Sequence record: MW822008.1
From: Escherichia phage BF17
Length of the DNA stretch: 64,000 nt
Strand: one strand, 5' to 3'
Below, one piece after another: positions 35,954-51,193 of this stretch (position 1 is its first letter; each line of letters opens with the position of its first letter). The translations under genes were made by a program, and so were the position numbers. Below the pieces are notes generated by a model, which saw only the letters and a list, made by a program, of their open reading frames with translations, made no database searches and was not told the origin of the DNA.

Positions 35954-37102
35954 TTACTGCACAAATGACATATCGACTTCGGTATAATTAAGAACGTTCT
36001 GTCCAGCACTACCACCCATTACTACAAATGAAGCACCCGAATAATATAACTTCGAAGTGTCAGTAAGTATAAGTGAACCAGATGGAGTGCGTACCAAATT
36101 ACACGAAGTATTAAACGAAGTATATGAAGGAGTATAGGAGTACTGATTATTATTATTACCAACACCTAATTGCCCAAACCCATTCGATCCAGAAGCATAT
36201 AGAACTTCATCTGCTTTGACAATATGTGATGCCATGTTACCAACACAAGTATATAGAGTATAAACTCCTGAACTCAATAATGTCGGAGTTTTATATTGTA
36301 TATCTGTAGATGTAGAAGTACCACCTGTACCAAATTCGTTCCCATATTGTGCACCGAACTGTTTACCACAAGCGTACAAATTATTATCCGATTTGATAAA
36401 AAATGTACTCTGATAACTTACATTAAAATCTATAACATCCGAAGAAATCATCGTCACCCCAGTAATAGAAGTTTGATTACCCGTGCCCAACTGGTAGTAA
36501 TAGTTAAAACCACAACCCCATAAAGTATTATCTTCTCGCAAATAAATGTTACCAACTGCCTTTTTAACCGAAGTTATAGTATCTACTCTTTTGAATGTGT
36601 TAAAAGAATTAATGTTTGTGCCATCACCAAATGATGATATGTTCGATATATTGTTAGTTCCACAACAATACAATGTACCATCGTTTGTTATCAAATTCAC
36701 CTTCATATCATAAAAACTACTCATGTATTTTATATCAGAAACATTAATACCACTTGATGTTATCCACGTAGTACAGTCCGTCCACAAAGTTTTTCTATCA
36801 GTTACACCAGTGAATGCCTTCGTGTTACCAGTGATAAAAACTTTTCCAGTACCTTTCTCTTCATACAATTGACAATCACTACTGTTATCTTCCAATAGAA
36901 CTCGTTTAACATTCTCCGCACAAAGAATAAATTTACTCGATGTTACACCTGTACCAGTACCCCAATTCGCCGCAGAAGATGCATACAACTTATCAGTATA
37001 AGTATCATGAAGATACATAGAATCACTGGAATATATTTTAAAACGCCCAGAGTTGGTAGGTGCTTCATTCCCATAATCAAACATTCTTACAAAAGGTAAC
37101 AT
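35954..37102 (-). CDS. array member 15: RCC1-like repeat protein
   Basis: 382 aa; MLPFVRMFDYGN; YYQLGTGNQTS and FGQLGVGNNNN; 12 nt downstream of member 16. Confidence 0.75.
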   Translation of the reverse strand: MLPFVRMFDYGNEAPTNSGRFKIYSSDSMYLHDTYTDKLYASSAANWGTGTGVTSSKFILCAENVKRVLLEDNSSDCQLYEEKGTGKVFITGNTKAFTGVTDRKTLWTDCTTWITSSGINVSDIKYMSSFYDMKVNLITNDGTLYCCGTNNISNISSFGDGTNINSFNTFKRVDTITSVKKAVGNIYLREDNTLWGCGFNYYYQLGTGNQTSITGVTMISSDVIDFNVSYQSTFFIKSDNNLYACGKQFGAQYGNEFGTGGTSTSTDIQYKTPTLLSSGVYTLYTCVGNMASHIVKADEVLYASGSNGFGQLGVGNNNNQYSYTPSYTSFNTSCNLVRTPSGSLILTDTSKLYYSGASFVVMGGSAGQNVLNYTEVDMSFVQ

Positions 37103-37114: not shown

Positions 37115-38020
37115 TTATTTAAAAACATACTGCGTATTAACACGTGTCCCGTTGTCGTAACCAAGTACGTAAAATATTTCAGCACTATTATTAGAGCCAA
37201 ATAATGCACCAGTACTATTACTCAACGTTGTATTGATAGCTAATGGTATCCATTTGTTTTGCTCGGCATCATATTTTAATAAATTTAATGCACCATAAGA
37301 TACTGCATATATACCTTTGTCATATCTATTGTAAATTATCTTACTAGGGTTAGCTCCACCAACTGCTGCCATTCTTGACCAAACCGCACTCTCTATGTGA
37401 TATTTTTGTGCAGGAGTAGATCCTTGTCCTGTAAAATATATGTAAGTACCATCAGTGCACATATCACCACCACCATTGTTTGTTGTATTCCCAGTAGTAC
37501 CTAACGATGCCCATGTATTAGTACTCGGCGTATAACTATATAATGCAGTATTAGACGGTGAACCCCACAAATATATCTTATCCCCTGTAGTAATCATCTT
37601 ACTATATACTGCCTGGTTAGGTTTGCCAACACTTGTATTATTCAGTGTCCATGTATCAGAGCTTATGTCATATACATAAAAATTATTATTAGCAACATTC
37701 GCTGCACCTAAACCACCGAACAAATATATTTTTCCTTGATAGGCACACAATGCACTTCCATAGGTGGATACTGGTGGTGATGATAATTGTACCCATATTC
37801 TAGAATTTAAATTAAAACTCCATAACTGATTATCCTGGTTCGAAGTATTCATTATACCACCAAATATATAAGCAGTATTTCTTGATGCATCATACGTATA
37901 ACCAAAGTTATTTCGTGCTGAAGGTACTGGTGATGTGGTAAATTGAGTTCGTACACCACCATTTGGGACTGGTAATGGAGCTTCATTCCCGTAATCAAAC
38001 ATTCTAACAAAAGGTAACAT
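37115..38020 (-). CDS. array member 16: Kelch-like repeat protein with the shared N-terminal tag
   Basis: 301 aa; MLPFVRMFDYGN then repeated IY(L)FGG...W blades. Confidence 0.7.
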   Translation of the reverse strand: MLPFVRMFDYGNEAPLPVPNGGVRTQFTTSPVPSARNNFGYTYDASRNTAYIFGGIMNTSNQDNQLWSFNLNSRIWVQLSSPPVSTYGSALCAYQGKIYLFGGLGAANVANNNFYVYDISSDTWTLNNTSVGKPNQAVYSKMITTGDKIYLWGSPSNTALYSYTPSTNTWASLGTTGNTTNNGGGDMCTDGTYIYFTGQGSTPAQKYHIESAVWSRMAAVGGANPSKIIYNRYDKGIYAVSYGALNLLKYDAEQNKWIPLAINTTLSNSTGALFGSNNSAEIFYVLGYDNGTRVNTQYVFK

Positions 38021-38123
38021 AAATCCCTCCTTTATTCATTATATCATATTTACCCCAAAAAGAAAACCCTTGACAACCTTCCAGTACTGATGTACTATAG
38101 AAGGAATATAAGGAGAACTGTAC
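38021..38123. promoter_or_regulatory. divergent promoter region
   Basis: minus-strand TATAAT/AAGGAGG for member 16 plus plus-strand TTGACA-17-TACTAT and AAGGAG for 38124. Confidence 0.5.
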
Positions 38124-38351
38124 ATGACAACTACACTTAAGTACTACATTAATACTCTAAATGAAATAGAGTACGCGAAGTTTCTCGCGGATAGTTCGTG
38201 GCTAATTGAGCTAAAAACACATAACAGTACTGGATGTAACCTTATGCTGAACAATGCACTTGATACCCTTGTAGTGAGTATTTTACACAGCAACATCTGC
38301 GGGAATAGCAATAAACAATTATCAAAAATCTTAGTACTGGTAGCTCTATGA
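38124..38351 (+). CDS. small protein, ~60-aa paralog family
   Basis: 75 aa; first gene of the plus-strand array. Confidence 0.55.
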   Translation: MTTTLKYYINTLNEIEYAKFLADSSWLIELKTHNSTGCNLMLNNALDTLVVSILHSNICGNSNKQLSKILVLVAL

Positions 38352-38560
38352 ACACTATGAACATTGAACAGTACTACATTGATGCACTACCAACAAAAGG
38401 TCTACGAGAAAGCCTACTGTATACACAAAATAATTATATAAACCTCAAACATTGTCCTAAACTCTTGAACTCGTACAGGAATAATAAAATAAGAAATGCT
38501 GTACAAGGGGTAGAAAGTATGCAATACTATTACATCCTAACCCTTTTAATCGAGCACTAA
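38348..38560 (+). CDS. small protein, ~60-aa paralog family
   Basis: 70 aa; shared Y-Y near N-terminus and L-x-L-I near C-terminus. Confidence 0.55.
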   Translation: MNTMNIEQYYIDALPTKGLRESLLYTQNNYINLKHCPKLLNSYRNNKIRNAVQGVESMQYYYILTLLIEH

Positions 38561-38561
38561 T

Positions 38562-38747
38562 ATGTATAAAGAATTCTACTGTAGTAAGCTGCACAAACAA
38601 TACAGAGATTCATTTCCCAATGAACCTATGGATATGAATAGTCCCTTTTATAAATTTGACTTCAGACTGGAGACACGTTATGCAATAGAACATCAATTTC
38701 CTGAAACTAAGTACTTATCTATCATGAACCTCATCTTTAAGTTCTAA
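38562..38747 (+). CDS. small protein, ~60-aa paralog family
   Basis: 61 aa. Confidence 0.5.
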   Translation: MYKEFYCSKLHKQYRDSFPNEPMDMNSPFYKFDFRLETRYAIEHQFPETKYLSIMNLIFKF

Positions 38748-38758
38748 AAGAGTACTAT

Positions 38759-38971
38759 ATGAAAACAATGAACATACACCAGTACTACTTAGATATTCTC
38801 CCTAAAGATGTACAGTTCATCCTTAAACAAGAATACAGTACTTTAAAAAACCTTAAAAGAACCGCACCGAATGTATTAATCCTGCACCAAGAAAATGTAG
38901 TTGATAATATTCTACAAGGTGTACCAGGGACCGAGTACTTTAACATAATAAGGCTAATTACATTACCATGA
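38759..38971 (+). CDS. small protein, ~60-aa paralog family
   Basis: 70 aa; close paralog of 38348. Confidence 0.55.
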   Translation: MKTMNIHQYYLDILPKDVQFILKQEYSTLKNLKRTAPNVLILHQENVVDNILQGVPGTEYFNIIRLITLP

Positions 38972-39153
38972 ATCATATATTATACTATTACCAAAATCTA
39001 TCCGACAGGGACAAGTACACCCACAACTCCAATGTATGGTACTACAAACGCGGTAGTATAAGAGATAAACAACATTACTTCTGTATTGCTATAAAAGAAG
39101 CACTAACAACTAAGTACACGTACAGAGCAGTACTGAAACTTATTGATATGTAA
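38968..39153 (+). CDS. small protein, ~60-aa paralog family
   Basis: 61 aa; C-term YTYRAVLKLIDM. Confidence 0.5.
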   Translation: MNHILYYYQNLSDRDKYTHNSNVWYYKRGSIRDKQHYFCIAIKEALTTKYTYRAVLKLIDM

Positions 39154-39163
39154 AGAGAATACT

Positions 39164-39346
39164 ATGAGCATTGAATTGTACTTAAGTAAATTACAGCCTG
39201 GCGATAGATTCATCTACAATAAGTTCGAATTCAACTACAAGAACGGGAGCAACAAATATCGTCGAGGATACCTATATACAAGCACAAGAGATGCACAAAA
39301 CGAAAAGTACACATACAGAGAAGTACTTAAACTAATCTCTATTTGA
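39164..39346 (+). CDS. small protein, ~60-aa paralog family
   Basis: ORF 39143 trimmed to ATG 39164; C-term YTYREVLKLISI. Confidence 0.5.
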   Translation: MSIELYLSKLQPGDRFIYNKFEFNYKNGSNKYRRGYLYTSTRDAQNEKYTYREVLKLISI

Positions 39347-39354
39347 GGTAATAT

Positions 39355-39540
39355 ATGAATACATTTGAGTACTATACCAATAAACTATCTATGCCTGAAA
39401 GATCTCATCTCTATGTGTGGAGAAATGCGTATAAAAGCGGCAATAAACTTATACAAAGAAATTCCCTTACAGTGTGTACAAATTTAATTAAAGCAGAGTA
39501 CCGCACATATATTGAAGTACTGAAGCTGATAGCAATCTAA
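39355..39540 (+). CDS. small protein, ~60-aa paralog family
   Basis: 61 aa; MNTFEYY...VLKLIAI. Confidence 0.55.
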   Translation: MNTFEYYTNKLSMPERSHLYVWRNAYKSGNKLIQRNSLTVCTNLIKAEYRTYIEVLKLIAI

Positions 39541-39548
39541 GGTACTCT

Positions 39549-39728
39549 ATGCAAGAATTCTATATCTATAACCTCCAGCACAAAGATAGATACAACTATA
39601 ATAAATTCCAAAGGTACTACACAGTCGGGAACAAAAGAGATAAAAAACGATACCTACTATCATGTACAGTAGAAGCACAAAACGAAAAGTACACGTACAG
39701 AGAAGTACTTAAACTAATCTCAATCTAA
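39549..39728 (+). CDS. small protein, ~60-aa paralog family
   Basis: 59-aa ORF below track cutoff; MQEFYIY...YTYREVLKLISI. Confidence 0.5.
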   Translation: MQEFYIYNLQHKDRYNYNKFQRYYTVGNKRDKKRYLLSCTVEAQNEKYTYREVLKLISI

Positions 39729-39735
39729 GGTAGAC

Positions 39736-39924
39736 ATGAACACTTTTGAGTACTACTTCAATAAACTAAACCGCATAGAACAAAGTATGCACAACTCATT
39801 TATTCAGCACCATCAATCATCTGCATCTGGAATTAAAAATATATCGATTGAGATTATCACTACCCGTGTACTGTCATCTGAACGTTATATGTATATTGAT
39901 GTACTGAAACTCATCTCTATGTAA
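39736..39924 (+). CDS. small protein, ~60-aa paralog family
   Basis: 62 aa; MNTFEYY...VLKLISM. Confidence 0.55.
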   Translation: MNTFEYYFNKLNRIEQSMHNSFIQHHQSSASGIKNISIEIITTRVLSSERYMYIDVLKLISM

Positions 39925-39932
39925 GGAATAAT

Positions 39933-40112
39933 ATGCAAGAATACTATATAGAACACATAAGCATTAAAGACCGTTTCATGTACGACACCTTCGTGAAGTA
40001 CTACAACCTGGCAACTAACAGTACTAAAAATATTAATCTCAATAGCTGCATTCATCACGCACTAACAAAAGATAATCCCTTCAGGGAAATCCTCGCACTA
40101 GCATCTGTATAA
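39933..40112 (+). CDS. small protein, ~60-aa paralog family
   Basis: 59-aa ORF below track cutoff; MQEYYIEH. Confidence 0.45.
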   Translation: MQEYYIEHISIKDRFMYDTFVKYYNLATNSTKNINLNSCIHHALTKDNPFREILALASV

Positions 40113-40122
40113 AGGAAACCAA

Positions 40123-40782
40123 ATGAAACTTAATGCACACAGCAAACAATACCTTAAGCACTTTAAGTACCTCAACAGTATTCAAGCAGAATCTTTTACA
40201 TCTGCATATACGTATCACCCAAATGTACTAAAGAAACGAAATAAAAAGAAAAAATCCAGAAATGTTCTCGTATCTAAGAACCTCAAATCGTACTTGAAGA
40301 AAAATAATATAGCTCTTGCTTTTATTAATATCTATAATACTGATTTAAAAGTATTGAGTACTAATACCAGCACAAAAGCACTAAAGAATGCATCTATCTA
40401 TATACACATGGATAATATCCCGTGCACTATAATTCTATCTTTCGGGAATGTATACTTCTTCGGGAATTGTAATAGCACCCATGATATCAGTACTGCACAA
40501 TTCCAAATCGGAGATATGTACTGCATGGGTTCAGAAAAAATACACGATAACATGCACTTCTTCCAAAAGCAACGTACTAACGAAACTGATACAGTACTGC
40601 AATTCCTCAAAGAACTACAAAACAAAGAATTATCAGAAGAAGATCTATTCATGTACAGTACTGTAATCGATAATCCAGGACTCTATAAAAACGCGTACAA
40701 ACTAACAAAACATGTACAGGAACTTATCAGTACTGATAAGAAATTTCATAACCTCATTACGTATATTTCAAACTATGTATAA
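40123..40782 (+). CDS. hypothetical protein, paralog of 19998-20648
   Basis: 219 aa; embedded in the small-protein array. Confidence 0.65.
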   Translation: MKLNAHSKQYLKHFKYLNSIQAESFTSAYTYHPNVLKKRNKKKKSRNVLVSKNLKSYLKKNNIALAFINIYNTDLKVLSTNTSTKALKNASIYIHMDNIPCTIILSFGNVYFFGNCNSTHDISTAQFQIGDMYCMGSEKIHDNMHFFQKQRTNETDTVLQFLKELQNKELSEEDLFMYSTVIDNPGLYKNAYKLTKHVQELISTDKKFHNLITYISNYV

Positions 40783-40957
40783 AGAATACTACAAAGATAA
40801 AATCCCAATGCATCTACAACACCATATACCAAACGTTGCATTGGGTATCAAAGAACACGCAAAGATAATGTTCCAACAATGTACTAAGTACACGCTCATA
40901 TACGATGATAATCCATATATGCTGTACTACGTAGTAATGCTAACATTCAGGTACTAA
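40775..40957 (+). CDS. small protein, ~60-aa paralog family
   Basis: ORF 40712 trimmed to MYKEYYKDK. Confidence 0.5.
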   Translation: MYKEYYKDKIPMHLQHHIPNVALGIKEHAKIMFQQCTKYTLIYDDNPYMLYYVVMLTFRY

Positions 40958-40958
40958 T

Positions 40959-41138
40959 ATGCACAAATATAAAGAATTCTACCTCTCGTACCTTAATTCC
41001 GATATAGTAACATCCAATACCTTCAGTACTAAAATTATCTATAATGAATTAATGAAAGAATGTATTAAAGGTGCTATTAACCCTAAAGATACGTATGACT
41101 TGTACTATGCAGTACTAACCCTTGTTTTCACGAAATAA
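40959..41138 (+). CDS. small protein, ~60-aa paralog family
   Basis: 59-aa ORF below track cutoff; MHKYKEFY. Confidence 0.45.
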   Translation: MHKYKEFYLSYLNSDIVTSNTFSTKIIYNELMKECIKGAINPKDTYDLYYAVLTLVFTK

Positions 41139-41146
41139 CACATAAT

Positions 41147-41338
41147 ATGAATAACCACAAAGAATACTACATAGAGAAACTCCCAATGTATCTCCAACAT
41201 CTTGTACCAACAGAACCATTGCGTATAGAAAAAGACTACGAAAAAGACTACTTCGTTAAGTGCACTAAATCCTCGATAGATATTGAGGACTATAATCGAG
41301 TACTGTATCACATCCTTTTACTAATATATAAGTACTAA
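41147..41338 (+). CDS. small protein, ~60-aa paralog family
   Basis: 63 aa; MNNHKEYYIEKL...LLLIYKY. Confidence 0.55.
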   Translation: MNNHKEYYIEKLPMYLQHLVPTEPLRIEKDYEKDYFVKCTKSSIDIEDYNRVLYHILLLIYKY

Positions 41339-41339
41339 T

Positions 41340-41528
41340 ATGAATAACCACAAAGAATACTACATACAATTTCTCCCCAGTATTTTTGAACACTACGCCA
41401 GATATAAAGTCCCCCTGGATAACGATTTGGCAGTACTGGGATTCAATAACTGCATAGAACGAAGTATAGAAAATAGTAGTAGCTATGACCAATTATATAA
41501 CACTATCCTACTTATATTCAGGTACTAA
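41340..41528 (+). CDS. small protein, ~60-aa paralog family
   Basis: 62 aa; MNNHKEYYIQFL...LLIFRY. Confidence 0.55.
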   Translation: MNNHKEYYIQFLPSIFEHYARYKVPLDNDLAVLGFNNCIERSIENSSSYDQLYNTILLIFRY

Positions 41529-41529
41529 T

Positions 41530-41718
41530 ATGCATAAAGAATACTACACAAAATATTTCCCAATGTACCTCAGTACTAATCTATTAGATAAACCTCGCGG
41601 TATCAATGCTCAAAACGATAAAGTGTACTTTACTATGTGCACTAAAGCATGTATACTAGATTTTGACAGCTATCATCGAGTACTGTATCATACCCTGTAC
41701 CTAGCTTTCGTGTACTAA
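41530..41718 (+). CDS. small protein, ~60-aa paralog family
   Basis: ORF 41485 trimmed to MHKEYYTKY. Confidence 0.55.
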   Translation: MHKEYYTKYFPMYLSTNLLDKPRGINAQNDKVYFTMCTKACILDFDSYHRVLYHTLYLAFVY

Positions 41719-41728
41719 AGAGGCCAAT

Positions 41729-41935
41729 ATGAACGAACAGAAAGAATTTTACACCAAACACCTCAGTGCATCAGAACAAATGTTTCTAAGGAGTGTATCA
41801 CCTTTAAGTTTAGATACACCACACGCCAGAGATTGCTTTAATAATTGTATACGTATTACTCTAGAAGCTTTAGAAAACAATAACAAAAATATTCAGTACT
41901 CAGGCGTAATGGGACTAATATTCTTCTATGAATAA
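41729..41935 (+). CDS. small protein, ~60-aa paralog family
   Basis: 68 aa; close paralog of 42309. Confidence 0.55.
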   Translation: MNEQKEFYTKHLSASEQMFLRSVSPLSLDTPHARDCFNNCIRITLEALENNNKNIQYSGVMGLIFFYE

Positions 41936-42116
41936 CAAAGAATTCTACTTAAACCATCTGGAACTAAACTCCCAAATGCTTATACCACTAAAACCAATAG
42001 ATATCAAGGATAAGAAAAATACCAAACAATTCCACTACCACACACTATGTGCAATCAACCCAGATTATAATACATATAAACTGTACTACATTCTCGCCCT
42101 AATATACAGGTACTGA
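41928..42116 (+). CDS. small protein, ~60-aa paralog family
   Basis: 62 aa; ends LALIYRY. Confidence 0.55.
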   Translation: MNNKEFYLNHLELNSQMLIPLKPIDIKDKKNTKQFHYHTLCAINPDYNTYKLYYILALIYRY

Positions 42117-42117
42117 T

Positions 42118-42303
42118 ATGCATAGAGAATACTACACACAATTTGTTAAAGGGAACTACAAACACGCCGTCCCCGTAAACCCCTTAAATTCTAATGACCC
42201 AAGTACTATATTCTTGTTCCATGACGCAATACGTACAGTACTCAATACTAAAGATGAACAGGTGCAGTACGTATTCTTACTATTACTTATATACAGACAC
42301 TAA
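42118..42303 (+). CDS. small protein, ~60-aa paralog family
   Basis: 61 aa; MHREYYTQF...LLLIYRH. Confidence 0.55.
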   Translation: MHREYYTQFVKGNYKHAVPVNPLNSNDPSTIFLFHDAIRTVLNTKDEQVQYVFLLLLIYRH

Positions 42304-42308
42304 CTAAT

Positions 42309-42518
42309 ATGAATAAAGAACATAAAGAATACTACTCCAAACACCTCAGCCCCTCAGAACAAATGTTTCTAAGGACTACAGCACCTTTAAGTACTGATAC
42401 ATATTTCGGCAGATTATGCTACAATAATTGTATTCAAATGACTTTAAACGCAAACGACAATAATAACAGTACTAACCTGTACTCAGGCATCATAGGTATA
42501 CTATTTCTATATGAATAA
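42309..42518 (+). CDS. small protein, ~60-aa paralog family
   Basis: 69 aa; MNKEHKEYYSKHLSPSEQMFLR. Confidence 0.55.
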   Translation: MNKEHKEYYSKHLSPSEQMFLRTTAPLSTDTYFGRLCYNNCIQMTLNANDNNNSTNLYSGIIGILFLYE

Positions 42519-42693
42519 AAAACATAAAGAGTACTATATAAGTAAACTAACATTCGTCCCCGTAAAAATATATAAAGAATGCGACCCAAGATTATACCTA
42601 TGGCACTTCAATGAGTGCATAAAAGATTCTATATACCATAAGAACTATAAAGAACAATTGATCTCAGTACTAACACTAGTACTATCATATTAA
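42511..42693 (+). CDS. small protein, ~60-aa paralog family
   Basis: 60 aa; MNKKHKEYYISKL. Confidence 0.55.
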   Translation: MNKKHKEYYISKLTFVPVKIYKECDPRLYLWHFNECIKDSIYHKNYKEQLISVLTLVLSY

Positions 42694-42706
42694 TAGAGAT
42701 AATACT

Positions 42707-42889
42707 ATGTATAAAGACTTCTATATAAGTAAACTAAAAGAAAATGAACAAATATGGATTAACAATCTAATCCCCCTACCAATGACTCAATACGAATTTA
42801 ATATGTGTACAAAGATTGTTTTAACTAGTAATGATATCTCTAATACGTACTACTTCCTATTAAGAGTACTATATGGTACTTTGAAATAA
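42707..42889 (+). CDS. small protein, ~60-aa paralog family
   Basis: 60 aa; MYKDFYISKL. Confidence 0.5.
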   Translation: MYKDFYISKLKENEQIWINNLIPLPMTQYEFNMCTKIVLTSNDISNTYYFLLRVLYGTLK

Positions 42890-42900
42890 TAAGGTATACT

Positions 42901-43107
42901 ATGCAGAACATAAAAAACTATAAAGAGTACTATATAAGTAAACTACCACCGACTGACCAAGCATGGATTAGATCTATAATAGTACTGGCATTTAATAGAT
43001 ATGCATTTAACAGATGTACCGAGATTGCTATAGACCCTTATAATATTAAAGAGAATGTACAGCATAATCAGTACTACTATATGTTAATGCTTATATATAG
43101 GAAGTAA
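42901..43107 (+). CDS. small protein, ~60-aa paralog family
   Basis: 68 aa; last member; ...YKEYYISKL...MLMLIYRK. Confidence 0.55.
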   Translation: MQNIKNYKEYYISKLPPTDQAWIRSIIVLAFNRYAFNRCTEIAIDPYNIKENVQHNQYYYMLMLIYRK

Positions 43108-43227
43108 TTCAACATATAGACAGGGGAAGCTCCGCAGGGAAAGCATTGGACAGGCTTTAACATATGTTATATATGTTAAAATTCAGCCTGGACAAATGCG
43201 ATCACTAGGATTCTCCCCAGGCTAAAC

Positions 43228-43520
43228 CCCGTAATCATATGTAGTCATAAGTAATCATATATAAACATTTATGTAATCATTTATAATCATTGTAGTGATT
43301 AGTATTGAGTACTAGAGTGTAATAGAGTACAGGAATGTGCACGTTTAATCAAGAACGTAGCAGTACTGCCCCAAAAGTATTCAGTACTGAAGGTGTCGAT
43401 ATCCCACTAAAGTAGGCAGAGGAAGTCTGCCGTACTTTTTAGTTTCCAAGCTCCTTTTCCATTTTTCAAATTACATCAAATGTAATCAAAAGTAATCACG
43501 CAATGATTAGTACTGAATTA
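43228..43520. repeat. cluster of GTAATCA / TGATTAC heptamer repeats
   Basis: GTAATCAT five times in 43228-43300; ATGTAATCAAAAGTAATCACGCAATGATTAG at 43470-43515. Confidence 0.5.
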
Positions 43521-44194
43521 TTACTTTCACCTTAATTTCAATTACCCTTTTACCCGTCGGGGTAAAATTCAATTACCCCTTGAGGCTCCAGAAAAAAGTT
43601 GGTTAGTACTCCATCCTAAATCTCGATCCTAAAAATTTTGGAGTACCTATGAAATAAAAGTTGGATCTTCGAAAGTTGAAATTTACGTTGGGACGTTTAT
43701 GATTTGTGGGATATAATGATGTTTGTAGACGGGTAGTTCTCAAGAATATCAGTACTGAATAATGAAAGAAAGTTATTGACATTATGATTCAGTACTGTAT
43801 AATGTTCTACATAGCTTCAAGGGTGATGAGTTGCTGCGAACAATTCATTTACTCTACCTCCTGTCGTGAGACAGTACAGAAAAGATAGTTCCTCCTGTGG
43901 TGGTACATCTTTTTGAACCTCATATGAAAATCGTAATAACAGTACTGATATTAACAGAATGGTGTCAGTACTGATTTTAATCTAAAGCATTATGCCACCA
44001 GCACAAGCTGGTGGATTCCCTCTAACAGTATTCAGTACTACATGATAGTCTTCATCCTCCTAGGGTAACATAGTGAGGGCTATGATGGCAGTACTGAATA
44101 CTCCCTTTCAAAAGATAGATCTATGGTATAGTACTGACGGATTTTGGGCGTAGTTACCCTGGATGGATTTTGGACGTAGATATGTCTAGCCCTC

Positions 44195-44335
44195 CAGAAG
44201 TCTGGAAGTAAAGATGGCTATCCATCTAGACGGCTAAACGGCTAGATTTCTGGATGGCTAGATGGCTAGACGTTTGGACGGCTAAACGGCTAGATGGTTA
44301 CACGTCTGGAAGTATAGACGGCTAAATCAAAATTT
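44195..44335. repeat. iteron-like cluster of GGCTA(A/G)A / ACGGCTA repeats
   Basis: GGCTA nine times in ~130 bp. Confidence 0.55.
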
Positions 44336-45081
44336 TATTTTGTTTTTCCAATAGTTCCCCTACCGCGTGGGGATAGTTTCCCCGCAGTATCTGGAGTTAG
44401 ATTTTTCTGAATCTGGAATCATTATCTTATAAACTGGGGGCAATGTCAACGACCTGGACGGATATTTTTAAAAATTTTTTCAGTACTGAATTTTGGGCGT
44501 AACTATGCACCCGGTGGGCTTGAGTCTTTCTCGACTTGATGGAACTATTATACAGTACTGAAAAAATAAAGCAATACCCTGGAAGCAAAAAAGTTTTAAT
44601 TAATTTGCTTGCTATCCTGGGCCGGACTATGGTACTATATTTCAGTACTGAGAAAGTGCGTTTACCTGCTAGGGTGCGGGAGTGTATCCTTTTTTTATAT
44701 CTTGAATTTTGGGCGTAATTTCGCACCCTCTGGGGTTTCCGCTTTCTCGCGTCTATGTAGTAATTATACGCTTTTTCAGGATCAAGTCAATACCTAAAAA
44801 CAAAATAATTGAAAATAATTTAACGCGTTTAAACGGCCCGTAAAGCCCTGGAATGATTGGAATGGTGCAAATGTATAGCTTATGTGTATTAATGCGTTAG
44901 AATGCGTCTGAGGCCGTTTTACGGGGTATGGGGATGATTTGGTGGATTGATTCAGTACTGAATAATAGTACTACTATATAGAAAGATAGTTCCCCTGGAT
45001 GGTTGCAGTACTGAATGATAGTACTGAATAATAGTTCCCCTATATAGAAAGAAAACTATTTTAAAAGTATTTGTAGAAAGT

Positions 45082-45142
45082 ACTTGCAAACTAAGTTTAA
45101 CGGCGTATAATGTTTTACATCGAGAGCGGGAACACTTCCCGC
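45082..45142 (+). promoter_or_regulatory. early-type sigma70-like promoter with leader hairpin
   Basis: ACTTGCAAACTAAGTTTAACGGCG TATAAT ... GCGGGAACACTTCCCGC. Confidence 0.6.
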
Positions 45143-45166
45143 TACATATTACGAGAGATTAAAACG

Positions 45167-45529
45167 ATGGCGACTCAAATCACTAAAATTATTGCTAACC
45201 TGGTTAACTTTCGCGACGAGATGAAAGATCTTCCGGCAGAAACGGTAAAAATTCACATTTCAGCTTATCGGGAACTTATTGCAATGTTACCGCTTAAGCG
45301 TGAACAATACGCCGCGACCGTGATGCTTGATGCGATGATCCATAAGATGATCGCCAGTGATTTAACGATGGTTTATCAGTATATGGGCGAAAATTTCGCG
45401 GTGTATAGTAAACCAGTACCAGGAATGGAAAGTACAGAAGTATTACACGGTTTAAATTTAAAACAAGATGCATGGGATAATATGCCTCGTTTCCTGGTAT
45501 GGGCTGACAGTGGCAAAATTTACGAATAA
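45167..45529 (+). CDS. hypothetical protein
   Basis: ORF 45110 trimmed to MATQITK; the longer reading starts inside the promoter. Confidence 0.6.
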   Translation: MATQITKIIANLVNFRDEMKDLPAETVKIHISAYRELIAMLPLKREQYAATVMLDAMIHKMIASDLTMVYQYMGENFAVYSKPVPGMESTEVLHGLNLKQDAWDNMPRFLVWADSGKIYE

Positions 45530-45541
45530 GTTTAATAAAGT

Positions 45542-45602
45542 ACTTGCAAACTAAGTTTAAAAGCGTATAATACTTTACATCAGGTGGGGAATAGTTCCCC
45601 AC
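45542..45602 (+). promoter_or_regulatory. early-type promoter with leader hairpin
   Basis: TACTTGCAAACTAAGTTTAAAAGCG TATAAT; hairpin GGGGAATAGTTCCCC. Confidence 0.6.
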
Positions 45603-45623
45603 TATAATTAAGAGATTAATTTT

Positions 45624-45857
45624 ATGAGTACTATTTTAACTGTTTCTCAATCCGTTGCACTGACTGACCTATTAAACGCTTTAAGCCGTTGCACTGAGGT
45701 TGGCTTGTTTGATGTGGTTGACGTTGCACCGGACGTTATTAATCATTTTTGTGATGCGATGGAAGAATGTAAGGAAGATGATAGCCGTATGATGGCGGTC
45801 GCCTTTGAGGAAGTACAGCCGGGTGAGATCAAAGGTTTACCAGTACTGAAAAAATAG
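45624..45857 (+). CDS. hypothetical protein
   Basis: 77-aa ORF after promoter/hairpin. Confidence 0.6.
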   Translation: MSTILTVSQSVALTDLLNALSRCTEVGLFDVVDVAPDVINHFCDAMEECKEDDSRMMAVAFEEVQPGEIKGLPVLKK

Positions 45858-45918
45858 TACTTGCAAACTAAGTTTAAAAGCGTATAATACTTTCTATCAG
45901 GTGGTGAATAGTTCCCCA
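45858..45918 (+). promoter_or_regulatory. early-type promoter with leader hairpin
   Basis: near-identical copy of 45542 unit. Confidence 0.6.
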
Positions 45919-45939
45919 CTATATAAGAGGATTAAAAAA

Positions 45940-46179
45940 ATGGCTAAATCAAAAATGTTCTTAGGTCACAAAAACAAAACTCATTGGAATGTAAGCCTTT
46001 GGATTAATAACGATGAGTCATTGTACCGGTTGGCCCAGGACTTTATTAATGATAGCACTAATCGCAATGATGCGGCCCGTCATATGATGCTATTTTTAGA
46101 ACAGACTGGACAAGATAAAACACCGGACGGATTCAAATATAGCACTACTGCGATCCGTGCGGCGATGGTTGGAATGTAA
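45940..46179 (+). CDS. hypothetical protein, paralog of 47980-48219
   Basis: trimmed to MAKSK; shares GHKNKT.WNVSLWINN and PDGFKYSTTAIRAAMVGM. Confidence 0.6.
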   Translation: MAKSKMFLGHKNKTHWNVSLWINNDESLYRLAQDFINDSTNRNDAARHMMLFLEQTGQDKTPDGFKYSTTAIRAAMVGM

Positions 46180-46265
46180 TAGAATTTATTTAAAGTACTA
46201 TCATTTTTTTGCGATAGTACTTTATAATAGTGTTTTATTCATACACCAACGATAAGGGTAACAGC

Positions 46266-46532
46266 ATGAATATTAAGTATTTTGCGACGCGTGAACAAGC
46301 TCGGATCGCCGCACGCCAGGACGGGGCAACGTTTAAAGATATGGGAGCGGGATCGGCAAGTGGTGAACGTTGGGCCATTGTAAAGCGTAGTACCGCCAGA
46401 TCATTACAGTACTGGTTAGCGGCGTTAAAAAGTCCCGATAGTGTATCGCGTCGAGTGGTAGAAATAAAGCTCGACCGAAAGGGCAACCGCGTGACCGTGT
46501 ACCGTACTAAAAAGATTGCAGTACTTGAATAA
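46266..46532 (+). CDS. hypothetical protein, paralog of 58638-59033
   Basis: trimmed to MNIKYFATREQARIAARQDG; shares DRKGNRVTVY. Confidence 0.6.
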   Translation: MNIKYFATREQARIAARQDGATFKDMGAGSASGERWAIVKRSTARSLQYWLAALKSPDSVSRRVVEIKLDRKGNRVTVYRTKKIAVLE

Positions 46533-46536
46533 AAAG

Positions 46537-46598
46537 TACTTGCAAACTATGTTTAATGGCGTATAATGTTTTACATCGAGAGCGGGAACACTTCCCGC
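46537..46598 (+). promoter_or_regulatory. early-type promoter with leader hairpin
   Basis: ACTTGCAAACTATG...TATAAT...GCGGGAACACTTCCCGC. Confidence 0.6.
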
Positions 46599-46619
46599 CT
46601 ATAACCTGGAGTAATAAAA

Positions 46620-46850
46620 ATGACTAATATGTATATGACTGAAGTTAAAACCGTAAAAGATACTACCACGAATAAAACTACTTACTTACAGCGGATCTGC
46701 GGTGTATGGCAACGTATCAGCAAATCAAAGTACTTTAAATTAACATCATATGCAAACCGTTCGGATTCATTCAGTACTGAAATAAAAGGTAATAAAGTAC
46801 ACCAATACGGCACTTATTATTATTATAGCCTGGACGCGATTGCAGTATAA
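46620..46850 (+). CDS. hypothetical protein
   Basis: 76-aa ORF, GGAG upstream. Confidence 0.55.
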   Translation: MTNMYMTEVKTVKDTTTNKTTYLQRICGVWQRISKSKYFKLTSYANRSDSFSTEIKGNKVHQYGTYYYYSLDAIAV

Positions 46851-47092
46851 GCAGTTTACAAATCTTTACAATTGCCGGTATTGACTTATTTTGTCAGTAC
46901 TGGCATAATGTATTCATTGGCAGATAAGCCGTAGCCCATAGGGTGCGGGAGTGTATCTATAGAAAAAGTAGTTTATTACAGTTACAATTGTGCACCCGGT
47001 GGGTTAGCTGTTGTCATGGGGTATATTATGCCAGTACTTGATAATGCTGTCAATACTTTTTTTACTATTCAGTACTGAAAACTATTTTTAAA

Positions 47093-47130
47093 AAGTACTT
47101 GCAAACTATGTTTAAAGGCGTATAATGTTT
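47093..47130 (+). promoter_or_regulatory. early-type promoter driving a non-coding leader
   Basis: ACTTGCAAACTATGTTTAAAGGCG TATAAT; no ORF before the next promoter. Confidence 0.55.
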
Positions 47131-47215
47131 TACATCAGGACGGGGAACGAAATAAGTAACTCCCCGTTAAGTAGCCCAGGAGTAAGGCACACGAAAAACT
47201 CCCCTGATAAAATAG
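47131..47215 (+). ncRNA. candidate small RNA / structured leader, copy 1
   Basis: ~85-nt conserved block CAGGACGGGGAACGAAA.AAGTAAC.CCCGTTAAGTAG.CCAGGAGTAAG...CCCCTGATAAAA; second copy at 57447-57525. Confidence 0.4.
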
Positions 47216-47262
47216 TTTGACAAATGTTTTTAAAAGCGTATAATACTTACATCAACTACTGA
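47216..47262 (+). promoter_or_regulatory. promoter upstream of 47277
   Basis: TTGACA ... TATAAT before GAGGG and ATG. Confidence 0.45.
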
Positions 47263-47276
47263 ATGAGGGTTACAAA

Positions 47277-47888
47277 ATGAAAACTATCACTACTACTACT
47301 TTCGTTATGGATTTTTCTGAATTGAACGCAGAACAAAAAACGTCAGCTATCGAACTGGTTCGGGAACGTGAAAAAAACTTAAACGATGATTATTTTTCTG
47401 AAAGTGAAATTGAATACTATAAAGAAACAGTACTACCGGAATATGGCATTAATGACGCTGATTTACGTTTCAGTGGCTTTTGGTCCCAGGGTGACGGTGC
47501 ATCAATCAGTACTGACCACGTTGACGCAGTGAAGTTTTTACGCAAGGTAAGAGCATTAACTAAGTATCGCTCAATCCGTCACTTGCTGAATGAAGATGAT
47601 TTGGCGATGAGTGTAAAGCGTTCTCACTCCCACTACTCGCATGAAAACACTGTAAGCGGGTACATTGAATCGGCTTACACTGATTTAACCGCAAAACAAG
47701 AAACGTTAGTTAATGAGCTTGAGGAACTACTCACTGAAACTATTCGTGAATTATCCCGCAAGTTGTACCGTGATTTAGAGAATGCATATGAGGATCAATT
47801 CACTACTGAAAACATTACGGCACTGATTGAGGGTAACGAATATCAATTCAATGTTATTGATGGCGTAGTAGAATCAATCGAATATTAA
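47277..47888 (+). CDS. hypothetical acidic protein
   Basis: 203-aa ORF. Confidence 0.65.
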   Translation: MKTITTTTFVMDFSELNAEQKTSAIELVREREKNLNDDYFSESEIEYYKETVLPEYGINDADLRFSGFWSQGDGASISTDHVDAVKFLRKVRALTKYRSIRHLLNEDDLAMSVKRSHSHYSHENTVSGYIESAYTDLTAKQETLVNELEELLTETIRELSRKLYRDLENAYEDQFTTENITALIEGNEYQFNVIDGVVESIEY

Positions 47889-47896
47889 TTTAAAAA

Positions 47897-47960
47897 AGTA
47901 CTTGCAAACTAAGTTTAAAAGCGTATAATACTTTATATCGAGGCGGGGAGTGGTTCCCCG
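47897..47960 (+). promoter_or_regulatory. early-type promoter with leader hairpin
   Basis: ACTTGCAAACTAAG...TATAAT; hairpin GCGGGGAGTGGTTCCCCGC. Confidence 0.6.
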
Positions 47961-47979
47961 CTCAAACGAGGATTTAAAA

Positions 47980-48219
47980 ATGGCTAGTTCTAAAACTTAC
48001 AACGGGCACAAAAACAAAACTCAATGGAATGTAAGCCTTTGGATTAATAACGGTGAGTCATTGTATCGGCTTGCACAAAGTTGTATCGCACAAAGTAGAA
48101 CTAAAGATATTGCAGCGGAATGTATGTACCGCAGATTAAAAGCCAACGGTACTACTACAACGCCGGACGGTTTTAAGTATAGCACTACTGCGATCCGTGC
48201 TGCAATGGTTGGAATGTAA
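47980..48219 (+). CDS. hypothetical protein, paralog of 45940-46179
   Basis: trimmed to MASSKTYNGHKNKTQWNVSLWINN. Confidence 0.6.
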   Translation: MASSKTYNGHKNKTQWNVSLWINNGESLYRLAQSCIAQSRTKDIAAECMYRRLKANGTTTTPDGFKYSTTAIRAAMVGM

Positions 48220-48276
48220 TATTCAGTACTGAGATAATGGCGGGTAATAGTTCCCGCCTTTACTGAGGGTTATCTA

Positions 48277-48537
48277 ATGAGTAAAGTAATAAAGTACAAT
48301 GTGTTAAGCAAATCATTGTCTATCAGTGAATGCACCGATGGTTTTTGGATGTACGATGAAACGCGTGGCATGAATTTAGCTATGCGTGCAAAAACTGCTG
48401 AGGCGGCGTATATTCAAGCACTGGAATACTACCAGGAACGTTTAAAGGAAGTAGAAGAAGATTATAAAAGCCTCAAAGCGAAAGTAGATCATTTCGTCGG
48501 TCAATTCATCGAGGAAGACGACGACAAACAATATTGA
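48277..48537 (+). CDS. hypothetical protein
   Basis: 86-aa ORF, GAGGG upstream. Confidence 0.55.
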   Translation: MSKVIKYNVLSKSLSISECTDGFWMYDETRGMNLAMRAKTAEAAYIQALEYYQERLKEVEEDYKSLKAKVDHFVGQFIEEDDDKQY

Positions 48538-48540
48538 AAA

Positions 48541-48606
48541 AGTACTTGCAATTAGTTTTCAGTACTGTATAATGGTTTACATCAAAGGGAGAAATGGTTC
48601 TCCCTG
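48541..48606 (+). promoter_or_regulatory. early-type promoter with leader hairpin
   Basis: ACTTGCAATTAG...TATAAT; hairpin GGGAGAAATGGTTCTCCC. Confidence 0.6.
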
Positions 48607-48623
48607 GTAATGAGGAAAATAAA

Positions 48624-48845
48624 ATGGCTAATATCACTACTCTTTCCCAACTGGAAGCACTGGTTAAATCTATGCGGGAACATGCCGACAAAATCGGCGT
48701 ACAAGATCCAGCCGTTTGCTTCTGCGACGAATTGAATGATGATACCCTGGTAATAGCAGAAGTCCAGGACGTTTCTAACTATTCATCGCGTTACACTGGC
48801 GGCGTAGCAAATAAAGGTGACTTCTGTTTATACCTTACAAAATAA
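48624..48845 (+). CDS. hypothetical protein
   Basis: trimmed to MANITTLSQ. Confidence 0.55.
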   Translation: MANITTLSQLEALVKSMREHADKIGVQDPAVCFCDELNDDTLVIAEVQDVSNYSSRYTGGVANKGDFCLYLTK

Positions 48846-49009
48846 CAACGCGGGGAGATAATAACTCCCCGTTACTTTTTCAGTACTGAATCATTTAATA
48901 GACGGATCTATGCACCCGGTGGGTTAGTGACTGTTTCGTCTTGATGTAGTAATTATGCCAGTACTGGATGCACTTGTCAACAACTATTTTTCAAATACTT
49001 TTTATTAAA

Positions 49010-49068
49010 ATACTTGCAATTAGTTTTTAAACGCGTATAATGTTTTGCATAGGGGGAGCGGTTCCCCT
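49010..49068 (+). promoter_or_regulatory. early-type promoter with leader hairpin
   Basis: ACTTGCAATTAG...TATAAT; hairpin GGGGGAGCGGTTCCCC. Confidence 0.6.
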
Positions 49069-49088
49069 GGTAACTAAGGAATAATAAA

Positions 49089-49325
49089 ATGCTTGAACAA
49101 ATCAAATCAACGTCTTCGAATGTAACGGGAACGGTAGCACACTTTACTAGTGATGAATCGCGGGGCGTTCCCTATTGTGCTGTACATGTAAACACTGAGG
49201 GTAACTACTGGTTTACGGTTTACGGATCATATTCATTTGGACGGCCAGGGCATCAAAAAATTCTGGATAAAGTACAACCAACGGGTAAAAATATCACTGC
49301 TGAAATGTTTTATAAAAAATCATAA
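49089..49325 (+). CDS. hypothetical protein
   Basis: 78-aa ORF. Confidence 0.55.
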   Translation: MLEQIKSTSSNVTGTVAHFTSDESRGVPYCAVHVNTEGNYWFTVYGSYSFGRPGHQKILDKVQPTGKNITAEMFYKKS

Positions 49326-49326
49326 A

Positions 49327-49390
49327 GTACTTGATAATAGTTTTTAGTACTGTATAATATTTTACATCGCAAGGGGGAGCGGTTCCCCCT
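49327..49390 (+). promoter_or_regulatory. early-type promoter with leader hairpin
   Basis: ACTTGATAATAG...TATAAT; hairpin GGGGGAGCGGTTCCCCC. Confidence 0.55.
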
Positions 49391-49409
49391 GGTAACTAAG
49401 GATAATCAA

Positions 49410-49709
49410 ATGAAAATTGCAATCATCGCCCTGGCTTTATCTGTTTCCTCTTTCGCTGTTAATGCGTCATTAGATGTAAGTAGTGAAAAATTCATTCAGT
49501 GCACTGTTGCAATGACCGATGAAAGTACTGGCGAGATTGTTTTAAAGGATTTAGAGATCCAGCCGGAAGCATTTAAAAACGGGCCGTTCCATGAAGAAGA
49601 CGAAAAAGGTAGCACGACAATTTATTACGATGCAAGTACTAAACGCGGTTCGGTCACTGTTATGGATACTGAGAAAGTAACTCATACTGGCGTTATTAAT
49701 TGCCGTTGA
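49410..49709 (+). CDS. small secreted protein
   Basis: 99 aa; signal-peptide-like MKIAIIALALSVSSFAVNA. Confidence 0.6.
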   Translation: MKIAIIALALSVSSFAVNASLDVSSEKFIQCTVAMTDESTGEIVLKDLEIQPEAFKNGPFHEEDEKGSTTIYYDASTKRGSVTVMDTEKVTHTGVINCR

Positions 49710-49730
49710 TATATACTACGGGGTAACATC

Positions 49731-49961: not shown

Positions 49962-49966
49962 GTACA

Positions 49967-49995
49967 TAGCCCACCTGGTGGGCTTTTTTGTTTTT
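49967..49995 (+). terminator. rho-independent terminator
   Basis: AGCCCACCTGGTGGGCT + TTTTTGTTTTTG. Confidence 0.65.
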
Positions 49996-50043
49996 GTAGT
50001 ATCGTAGTACTGAGATACTTTGAAAATAGTTTTAAAAAAGTAG

Positions 50044-50677: not shown

Positions 50678-50698
50678 CAATTAAAGTACTGAATCACT

Positions 50699-51189: not shown

Positions 51190-51193
51190 AAAA

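Follow-up and report, generated by a model that had tools for sequence, protein, structure and literature searches.

A tandem array of small paralogous genes beside the terminal repeat of Asteriusvirus jumbo phages: one probable superfamily with a possible role in host interaction

Introduction

The 64,000-nucleotide (nt) stretch of Escherichia phage BF17 analyzed here (sequence record MW822008.1; below, the window) carries on its plus strand, to which all array coordinates refer, an array of very small genes packed one after the other (positions 38124–43107), and this locus raises the questions of whether these open reading frames (ORFs) are genes, whether they form one family, and what they do for the phage. 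The comparisons presented below support a lineage-specific family that has expanded and whose proteins are small, soluble, without known domain and often unannotated. As to their role, the reading that we favour, and hold tentatively, is that of a 23-gene polycistronic operon, transcribed by the host, whose genus-restricted four-helix proteins would act as diversified binders in host takeover or counter-defence. Jumbo phages are considered for therapy and about 80% of their genes are uncharacterised; the array makes up 3–4% of the Asteriusvirus gene count and is half-missed by routine annotation. Public records already contain its sequences, labelled hypothetical proteins, and the lineage-specific expansion of small genes in a large phage is a known phenomenon; our literature search found no paper on the array or its expression, nor one on the AGTACT motif discussed below.

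Gene content of the array

A megablast search with positions 38000–43200 returned 34 phage records, all from jumbo phages of Escherichia or Salmonella; wherever taxonomy was checked, the genus was Asteriusvirus (121Q/PBECO4 group), and the closest is vB_Ec-M-J (97.6% over 100% of the query). Judged by these matches, the window is from an Asteriusvirus jumbo coliphage. The ORF listing and a start-codon survey reveal an unbroken chain of 22 ORFs of 59–75 amino acids (aa) and one of 219 aa, called L11, with a coding share of about 97% of the 4984 base pairs (bp) and with junctions that range from an 8-nt overlap (-8) to a 13-nt gap (+13). The array is divergent from minus-strand propeller genes, a 103-bp intergenic region lying between them. 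The original prediction, made from the sequence letters and an ORF list, of 22 packed plus-strand genes of 59–75 aa divergent from the propeller array is borne out by the listing, but its inventory had overlooked L11 in the middle of the array (40123–40782). The TAATATG junctions that it described are found, as a stop-N-ATG type, at five boundaries, whereas the others are 4- or 8-nt overlaps or 5–13-nt gaps. Identical 5' nucleotides had also been reported for several copies; the 27-nt sequence ATGAATAACCACAAAGAATACTACATA has in fact just two occurrences, opening S14 (41147) and S15 (41340). The expectation that gene callers would overlook members was correct for vB_Ec-M-J (11 of 23 genes annotated) and phAPEC6 (9 of 20), although WPEC5 and 121Q are annotated in full; wherever the locus is annotated in related records, it is as hypothetical proteins only.

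The genes are listed below in their order, with groups A, B and C as defined in the following sections from BLASTP clusters and hidden Markov models (HMMs). Three of them use an internal ATG and not the longest possible start (39164, 40775 and 41530).

38124–38351, plus strand: S01, 75 aa, probable divergent family member (hhalign against group C, E 1.3e-3; orthologue scores against shuffles)
38348–38560, plus strand: S02, 70 aa (67 aa from an alternative ATG at 38357), group C (BLASTP clusters, profiles)
38562–38747, plus strand: S03, 61 aa, group B, PHROG 11711 (HMM match)
38759–38971, plus strand: S04, 70 aa, group C (BLASTP clusters)
38968–39153, plus strand: S05, 61 aa, group A (BLASTP clusters, HMM)
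39164–39346, plus strand: S06, 60 aa, group A; ATG start, longest ORF from TTG 39143 (start survey, BLASTP)
39355–39540, plus strand: S07, 61 aa, group A; top group A match of the group B HMM, E 8e-4
39549–39728, plus strand: S08, 59 aa, group A (BLASTP)
39736–39924, plus strand: S09, 62 aa, group A (BLASTP)
39933–40112, plus strand: S10, 59 aa, group A (BLASTP)
40123–40782, plus strand: L11, 219 aa, conserved central array gene, basic (isoelectric point, pI, 9.4; lysine-rich stretch), PHROG 29152
40775–40957, plus strand: S12, 60 aa, group B; 8-nt overlap with L11; missing in WPEC5 through a 190-nt unit deletion
40959–41138, plus strand: S13, 59 aa, group B (BLASTP)
41147–41338, plus strand: S14, 63 aa, group B; the member modelled with AlphaFold
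41340–41528, plus strand: S15, 62 aa, group B; first 27 nt the same as those of S14
41530–41718, plus strand: S16, 62 aa, group B (start survey, BLASTP)
41729–41935, plus strand: S17, 68 aa, group B; recent paralog of S20, 74% nucleotide identity
41928–42116, plus strand: S18, 62 aa, group B (BLASTP)
42118–42303, plus strand: S19, 61 aa, group B (BLASTP)
42309–42518, plus strand: S20, 69 aa, group B (BLASTP)
42511–42693, plus strand: S21, 60 aa, group B; missing in WPEC5 through a 187-nt unit deletion
42707–42889, plus strand: S22, 60 aa, group B (BLASTP)
42901–43107, plus strand: S23, 68 aa, group B, final array gene (BLASTP)

Conservation and selection

The same architecture is found in all eight Asteriusvirus loci compared: S01, one group C gene, one group B gene, a further B or C gene, two to six A genes, L11, and nine to twelve B genes. 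Every array reading frame is intact in the eight genomes (16–23 genes per phage), start codons and frames being kept throughout. Concatenated orthologues yield a ratio of nonsynonymous to synonymous substitution rates (dN/dS) of 0.26–0.48, whereas three flanking genes have 0.12–0.35 in most cases (0.00–0.84 over all comparisons), and the substitutions are distributed over codon positions 1, 2 and 3 as 540:413:750. The array is under purifying selection that is somewhat relaxed. The chance of a stop-free run of 60 codons at the G+C content of the window is about 0.01, so that 23 consecutive co-oriented ORFs are not a product of chance. A recognizable Shine-Dalgarno core is present in about half of the genes, often within the last codons of the preceding gene (AGG-TAC-TAA-T-ATG), and the genes without a clear one overlap or abut their neighbour; translation may be coupled across these short junctions.

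The idea that the ORFs are untranslated, being chance or decaying frames in AT-rich DNA, could appeal to the half of the genes that lack a clear Shine-Dalgarno sequence, but it is hardly credible in view of co-oriented frames that cover nearly the whole 5 kb and that are intact in eight genomes at a synonymous divergence (dS) of up to ~0.2 and, for JNE01, beyond DNA alignability. A dN/dS below 0.5, the excess of third-position substitutions and the confident AlphaFold model described below argue against it as well.

Relationships among the array proteins

All-against-all BLASTP separates the proteins into three clusters, S01 and L11 standing outside. Group A comprises the six genes S05–S10 (38968–40112), with the motif x-E-(Y/F)-Y ... 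Y-x-Y-R-E-V-L-K-L-I-S-I; group B the 13 genes S03 and S12–S23, with K-E-Y-Y ... F-N-x-C-T ... L-x-L-I-Y-R-Y; and group C the genes S02 and S04, with M-N-I-x-Q-Y-Y ... Y-x-I-L-x-L. The K-E-Y-Y/L-x-L-I pattern proposed at the outset as common to all members is thus that of the 13 group B genes, whereas the motifs of groups A and C differ and S01 is marginal. Within-group BLASTP E-values reach 1e-28, and the group HMMs recover their members at 1e-16 to 1e-31 with the best other window protein at about 1e-2. Because of these values, AT-rich low complexity is ruled out as the source of the similarity; the check by alignment and family HMM that had been suggested along with the prediction comes out in favour of the family. 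We also looked for a second copy of the family outside the array, but the group HMMs gave no further member in the rest of the 64-kb window.

Profiles to which orthologues of seven other phages had been added link the groups to each other: hhalign aligns A with B at E 2.8e-6 (probability 88%) and B with C at E 2.7e-6 (88%), both alignments being colinear and full length. When the six S01 orthologues are scored against the merged profile, five obtain 10.9–13.0 bits, above the maximum of 10.4 in 500 composition-matched shuffles, and the sixth lies outside the best 15 matches of this scoring. Because of the hhalign links between groups and the S01 orthologue scores above shuffles, we count 21 clear members and S01 as one probable member of a single superfamily. 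The conserved scaffold consists of an N-terminal K-E-Y-Y helix, a P-L loop, the F-N-x-C-T sequence opening helix 3, and a hydrophobic C-terminal helix, while the loop and helix surfaces vary among members.

The five group B members tested match PHROG 11711 over its full length (E 2.5e-9 to 3.6e-27, 60–62 of 62 profile positions), and L11 matches PHROG 29152 with E 1.3e-114 (residues 1–219 on profile positions 1–223); S06 and S08 of group A, S02 of group C and S01 have no PHROG match at E <= 0.01. The two PHROG entries thus resemble group B and L11 from end to end, but they carry no function, no link between the groups at superfamily level and no array organisation. L11 itself is without significant sequence similarity to the small ORFs, its C-terminal ~60 residues aligning weakly with the family (E ~0.08); from these weak profile matches it may be a family member with an N-terminal extension.

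The family proteins are roughly 60 residues long, soluble and tyrosine-rich, the aromatic content of the array proteins being 7–23%. Most group A members are strongly basic (pI 9.4–9.6, net charge +4.5 to +5.6), as is L11 (net charge +12, with a K/R-rich stretch); group B members are mostly near neutral or acidic. The highest 19-residue Kyte-Doolittle mean is 1.13, in agreement with the description of the proteins as non-hydrophobic, and this maximum rules out transmembrane or secreted proteins. Zinc-binding proteins are ruled out too, most members having a single cysteine. That the proteins contain no recognizable domain is confirmed by scans of Pfam-A, NCBIfam and PADLOC, which give nothing above noise: the matches in Pfam-A and NCBIfam are sub-threshold chance matches of 13–14 bits, against curated cut-offs of 22–108.

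Predicted fold and taxonomic range

The AlphaFold2 model of S14, built from a 65-sequence alignment, has a mean predicted local distance difference test score (pLDDT) of 89.8 and a predicted template modelling score (pTM) of 0.74. It contains two short helices (residues 4–9 and 14–17), a loop, and two long helices (residues 30–45 and 49–62); the small proteins are confidently predicted to adopt a four-helix fold. The model of L11 is of low confidence (pLDDT 37.6). A Foldseek search of the PDB with the S14 model gave nothing below E 4, one of BFVD gave matches confined to the same family from 121Q-like phages, and profiles of groups A, B and L11 had no match in the PDB.

A word-indexed search of 5.8 billion proteins identified 68 clusters for group B, 34 for group A and 23 for L11, all attributable to Asteriusvirus phages or to contigs of ~350 kb; an exhaustive profile search of 1.84 billion representatives yielded about 26 true matches, all of ~60 aa, the most divergent of which trace to Asteriusvirus JNE01, Turkey5 and A4. 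As its database relatives are all from Asteriusvirus, the family is, on this evidence, restricted to that genus. In Pectobacterium phage CBB (genus Mimasvirus), minus-strand kelch-like structural genes are followed by the terminal repeat with no small-gene array between them: an array of kelch-like and Laminin_G structural genes (CBB 350196–355924) directly abuts the repeat. Because of this direct adjacency, the small-gene array looks like a genus-specific insertion or expansion at the junction of propeller genes and terminal repeat.

Turnover of the array between strains

The array is among the most variable loci between otherwise collinear strains. Clustering of all members from the eight genomes at 65% identity gives 45 orthogroups, 12 of which are common to seven genomes and 19 of which occur in a single genome, 16 of these being the entire JNE01 array. 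Some orthogroups change slot between phages; the S17 type, for example, is third in 121Q, SP27, slurp01 and phAPEC6.

The longest nucleotide repeats (families D3, D5 and D6, 58–64 nt) span gene junctions, and the gene centres are variable between these junction-spanning conserved blocks. Identity among group B paralogs peaks at the K-E-Y-Y codons, where the third positions reach 1.00, 0.59, 0.85 and 0.62 against about 0.35 elsewhere. Alignments with WPEC5 and SP27 allowed five indels to be mapped, all of them whole gene units of 187–209 nt. Four of the five have both ends in the opening ~60 nt of neighbouring paralogs. In the two WPEC5 deletions the junctions lie exactly in the repeated, Y-K-E-coding motifs TATAAAGAAT and ATAAAGA, at direct repeats of 10 and 7 nt in the K-E-Y-Y-coding block; the fifth indel removes almost exactly S17 (nt 4–206), with a 3-nt repeat only. 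Unit-length indels with breakpoints in the conserved 5' block are direct evidence from the sequence that units are gained and lost as paralogs recombine through their conserved 5' ends. Such cassette turnover is a concrete, testable mechanism for the diversification of phage multigene families.

Expression context and the terminal repeat

The elements that bear on expression of the array are the following.

38070–38098, plus strand: sigma70-like promoter TTGACA-17-TACTAT upstream of the array (kept in 8 of 8 Asteriusvirus loci; JNE01 form TTGACA-17-TACAAT)
38110–38115, plus strand: Shine-Dalgarno sequence AAGGAG, 8 nt ahead of the first ATG (invariant, 8 of 8 loci)
41663–41691, plus strand: putative promoter-like site within S16, TTGACA-N10-AGTACT-G-TATCAT (architecture of the terminal-repeat promoters; 7 of 8 loci)
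43411–43431, plus strand: start of the direct terminal repeat, with hairpin GGCAGAGGAAGTCTGCC at 43415–43431 (43411 corresponds to the left genome end as annotated in vB_Ec-M-J)

The conservation of the upstream promoter and of AAGGAG extends to JNE01, whose array is otherwise barely alignable. The site within S16 matches 11 of 12 consensus positions. Promoter-like sites are not enriched in the array region (24, against 35.6 in shuffles), no terminator-like site was seen on the plus strand inside the array, and no T4-late-type promoter motif TATAAATA was found in, near or upstream of it. Internal promoters of the AGTACTG-TAnnnT type for each gene were considered and rejected: there are three such sites only (S14, S16 and S22), with a good -35 element only in S16.

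Asteriusvirus genomes have direct terminal repeats of ~21 kb (PMC13070987). Positions 43411–64000 of the window correspond to this repeat, which starts exactly at the GGCAGAGGAAGTCTGCC hairpin; since the left genome end of vB_Ec-M-J maps to 43411, the array is the last gene block of the unique region. Within the repeat (43776–62693) there are about 25 near-consensus plus-strand sigma70-type promoters, mostly of the form TTGACA-N9-AGTACT-G-TATAAT. Near-consensus promoters such as these predicted ones are a hallmark of transcription by the host polymerase, and those whose -10 element abuts AGTACT look like a phage-specific class of early promoters.

Several other features of the repeat and its surroundings were noted. 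Fifteen GGGGAG-loop-CTCCCC hairpins (47142–61927), conserved stem-loops of the 5' leaders, lie about 10–15 nt downstream of the -10 elements of terminal-repeat promoters, and there are none in the array. A ~25-nt element, CCCAnnGGGTGCnnnAnTGTATCT, is present in eight copies (44672, 46941, 46997 on the minus strand, 53744, 55406, 57345, 60618 and 62580), several of them just downstream of promoters, and has no Rfam match; no transfer RNA (tRNA) and no Rfam family was found in the window. A second repeated promoter class on the plus strand, aaaGGGTTGACTtcgGTCAGCCCtttttgcTATAAT (972, 4566, 5346, 7609, 12081, 12664, 15424, 53683 and 57289), places its -35 element within a G+C-rich hairpin that precedes a T run, which would make it a combined intergenic terminator-promoter unit. 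The region 43107–45110, nearly ORF-free over 2 kb at the start of the repeat, retains about 90% identity even in JNE01, above that of the adjoining array, and a 53-nt piece of it (44718–44770) is also found in other jumbo phages, namely 7t3, SE_PL and PHA46 of Salmonella and Kaldavass of Erwinia. Megablast with 42800–46800 matches 152 phage records and with 43100–45100 only 41, so that a segment in 45.1–46.8 kb is shared at 80–90% DNA identity with >100 other phages. These include Phapecoctavirus and Vequintavirinae members and phages of Campylobacter, Klebsiella and Acinetobacter, and the shared segment (~45100–46800) is probably a horizontally mobile gene.

On the other side of the array, an RCC1-like protein (35954–37102, minus strand) and its 301-aa neighbour (37115–38020, minus strand; annotated as a virion structural protein in vB_Ec-M-J) share the identical starting peptide MLPFVRMFDYGNEAP, which looks like a common N-terminal module placed on different C-terminal domains.

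AGTACT excess and absent tetramers and hexamers

With 275 copies in the window where 21.5 are expected (12.8-fold), AGTACT is the sole outlier of the 64 palindromic hexamers, the next one reaching 1.7-fold; CAGTACTG occurs 63 times against 1 expected. Per kb, the array contains 8.2 AGTACT sites, the terminal repeat about 6 and the rest of the window about 2. In the array genes it is found in all three frames and at non-homologous positions, where it encodes V-L (15 sites), x-Y-x (13) or S-T (12). These 40 sites in the coding sequences compare with 10.5 +/- 2.7 under a synonymous-codon shuffle that keeps proteins and codon usage (z 10.8) and with 4.7 if the codon usage of the neighbouring genes is assumed; the effect is weaker in the RCC1 genes (36 against 13.1 under the synonymous shuffle). 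The codon choice follows the same trend: tyrosine, which accounts for 9.9% of array residues, is encoded by TAC in 63% of cases against 25% in RCC1 genes, and valine by GTA in 71% against 29%. The shuffling rules out the excess as a by-product of protein sequence and codon usage, and because AGTACT exceeds the synonymous-codon expectation, the coding sequence of the array carries an additional signal at the level of DNA or RNA. The density is kept at 6–8.3 per kb in all eight arrays though individual sites turn over; since single sites are no better conserved than background 6-mers, AGTACT does not represent a set of position-conserved elements. The E-Y-Y, V-L and R-Y-stop signature of the family is partly written in GTAC-containing codons, and the family similarity reaches well past those positions.

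Phage CBB, of another genus and another host, has 221 AGTACT against 14.7 expected in the stretch compared (330–378 kb). As CBB has the excess but no array at the equivalent locus, the signal is, from this comparison, clade-wide and independent of the small-protein family. GCGC is absent from both (0 against 52.6 expected in the window, 0 against 54.8 in CBB), and CCATGG (0 against 10.8), AGGCCT and AGCGCT are likewise missing, which suggests strong restriction-type avoidance or the specificity of a phage nuclease. The AGTACT excess and the absence of GCGC point to a sequence-specific process across the Rak2-like clade and form a separate lead, worth its own follow-up.

Possible functions of the array

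The operon that we tentatively favour would work as follows. Host RNA polymerase would transcribe it from the promoter at 38070–38098, probably early and alongside the promoter-rich terminal repeat; the proteins would act inside the infected cell, where they would bind macromolecules of the host or of a competing phage; and each variable surface would be tuned to a different target, making the proteins accessory factors of host takeover or counter-defence. Genomic context suggests early or at least non-late expression and an intracellular role, and makes host interaction or counter-defence the most likely function and a plausible one, as had been proposed: it is consistent with the conserved promoter, the adjoining promoter-dense repeat, absence from the phAPEC6 virion, cassette turnover and relaxed selection. 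The phAPEC6 virion contains 62 proteins, among them the neighbouring RCC1-like gp549 and gp551 and no array protein (PMC7247149), and in phage CBB the short-gene region leading into the terminal repeat has been proposed as an early host-takeover region (PMC5259590).

Several points weigh against this proposal. Small proteins, half of them unannotated in phAPEC6, are easily missed by mass spectrometry of virions; no known anti-defence, host-takeover or DNA-binding protein resembling the array proteins in sequence or fold came out of PADLOC or the PDB; dN/dS stays below 1, with no sign of positive selection; and part of the sequence constraint, as seen in the AGTACT excess, is not on the protein. 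Furthermore, the upstream promoter matches 10 of 12 consensus positions only, and the array ends at 43107, 304 bp before the repeat starts at 43411, and thus lies outside it. Its genes, unlike those of the terminal repeat, have neither their own promoters nor GGGGAG/CTCCCC leader hairpins, so that timing and strength of their expression may differ, and no Asteriusvirus transcriptome was found in the literature searched. If early host interaction or counter-defence is nevertheless the function, the array is a natural library of at least 45 sequence types in eight genomes, displayed on one tiny scaffold, and would be useful for finding new host targets and for explaining differences in host range.

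A more elaborate explanation, which we regard as rather unlikely though worth keeping in mind, is that of a hypervariable cassette-shuffling locus. It would provide each strain with its own early repertoire of four-helix proteins against defence or physiology targets, re-assorted at the K-E-Y-Y junctions, and would at the same time be the densest carrier of a clade-wide (C)AGTACT(G) cis-signal, present in codons of all three frames and in early promoters, protein and DNA motifs having co-evolved. It is improbable that the proteins are instead nucleic-acid-binding regulators or structural DNA-binding proteins, expanded in this lineage like the ~35 zinc-ribbon copies of Bacillus phage G and possibly reading AGTACT. 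The basic character of group A and L11 and the motif itself (13–15-fold enriched, beside the -10 element of about 20 terminal-repeat promoters, densest in the array) speak for such a role, as does the earlier example of a jumbo phage in which a small protein, a putative transcription factor, has been expanded (PMC7824862), but group B is mostly near neutral or acidic and the excess is also found in CBB, which has no equivalent array.

Still less is to be said for the 5-kb block acting primarily as DNA or RNA, that is, as an AGTACT-dense buffer beside the genome end (a binding platform, protective signal or RNA structure) in which the ORFs would be secondary passengers and their conserved E-Y-Y, V-L and S-T motifs in part a reflection of the palindrome; we consider this quite improbable. 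The number of sites beyond both expectations, their spread over three frames and non-homologous positions, the bias toward TAC and GTA relative to the RCC1 genes and the density maintained in eight arrays all fit it. Set against this are ORFs, starts and frames kept in all genomes at dN/dS 0.26–0.48, a confident common fold predicted from the alignment, and a family similarity extending to P-L, F-N-x-C-T and L-x-L-I, well past the motif-coding positions, while single AGTACT sites are conserved no better than background and the excess is genome- and clade-wide, hence not particular to the array. Assembly chaperones, or minor virion or ejected components, serving the adjacent RCC1/kelch-like propeller proteins of the virion would account for two adjoining paralog arrays with a common 103-bp control region, both varying in copy number between phages, and for the presence of gp549 and gp551 in phAPEC6 particles. 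Fibre chaperone genes, however, are usually interleaved with fibre genes, which is not the case for the small genes and the propeller genes; the proteins detected in the phAPEC6 virion include none from the array, the kelch-like structural array of CBB lies beside its terminal repeat without small genes, and the promoter is sigma70-like, with no T4-late-like motif in or upstream of the array. We consider a role of this kind very unlikely.

Comparison with known systems

Bacillus phage G contains a lineage-specific expansion of small zinc-ribbon proteins in ~35 copies (PMC7824862). Both are cases of a jumbo phage in which a single family of small proteins has reached many copies, with a function that is inferred only; the array proteins are, in contrast, helical, with one cysteine and no metal site, and the array copies stand in one contiguous tandem operon.

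The lpl cluster of S. aureus is a tandem paralog cluster whose conserved unit runs from the 3' end of an ORF across the junction into the 5' end of the following ORF (PMC2568036); immunity genes, too, can stand in strings of non-identical copies, which evolve as tandem paralogs recombine with each other (PMC9484751). The junction-straddling repeats D3, D5 and D6, the unit-length indels with breakpoints in the conserved 5' block and the variable centres resemble these clusters, whereas the genes differ: those are bacterial lipoprotein and immunity genes, these are phage genes with no identified cognate toxin or partner.

Large eukaryotic DNA viruses also have multigene families and gene accordions, as in the amplification of poxvirus K3L and in the multigene families (MGF) of African swine fever virus. 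Their proteins are unrelated to those of the array, which shows no sign of selection-driven amplification and has no identified host target, but tandem paralogs near a genome end of a large virus vary in copy number in both.

Host-takeover or pre-early clusters of large virulent phages are known from the terminal-redundancy module of SPO1 (about 24 small genes), from the pre-early genes in the terminal repeat of T5 and from the small early ORFs of T4. These clusters are made of mostly unrelated genes, often with a strong promoter each, whereas here 21–22 paralogs stand behind essentially one upstream promoter; and the genes of an SPO1- or T5-type module are inside the terminal repeat, whereas the Asteriusvirus array, for which early timing is only inferred, lies just outside it. 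What the array has in common with them, and with the proposed early region of CBB, is that many small genes are co-oriented, that they lie at or beside a long terminal repeat, and that their proteins were not found in the virion; promoters of the sigma70 type, which would be a further common feature, are for the array predicted ones.

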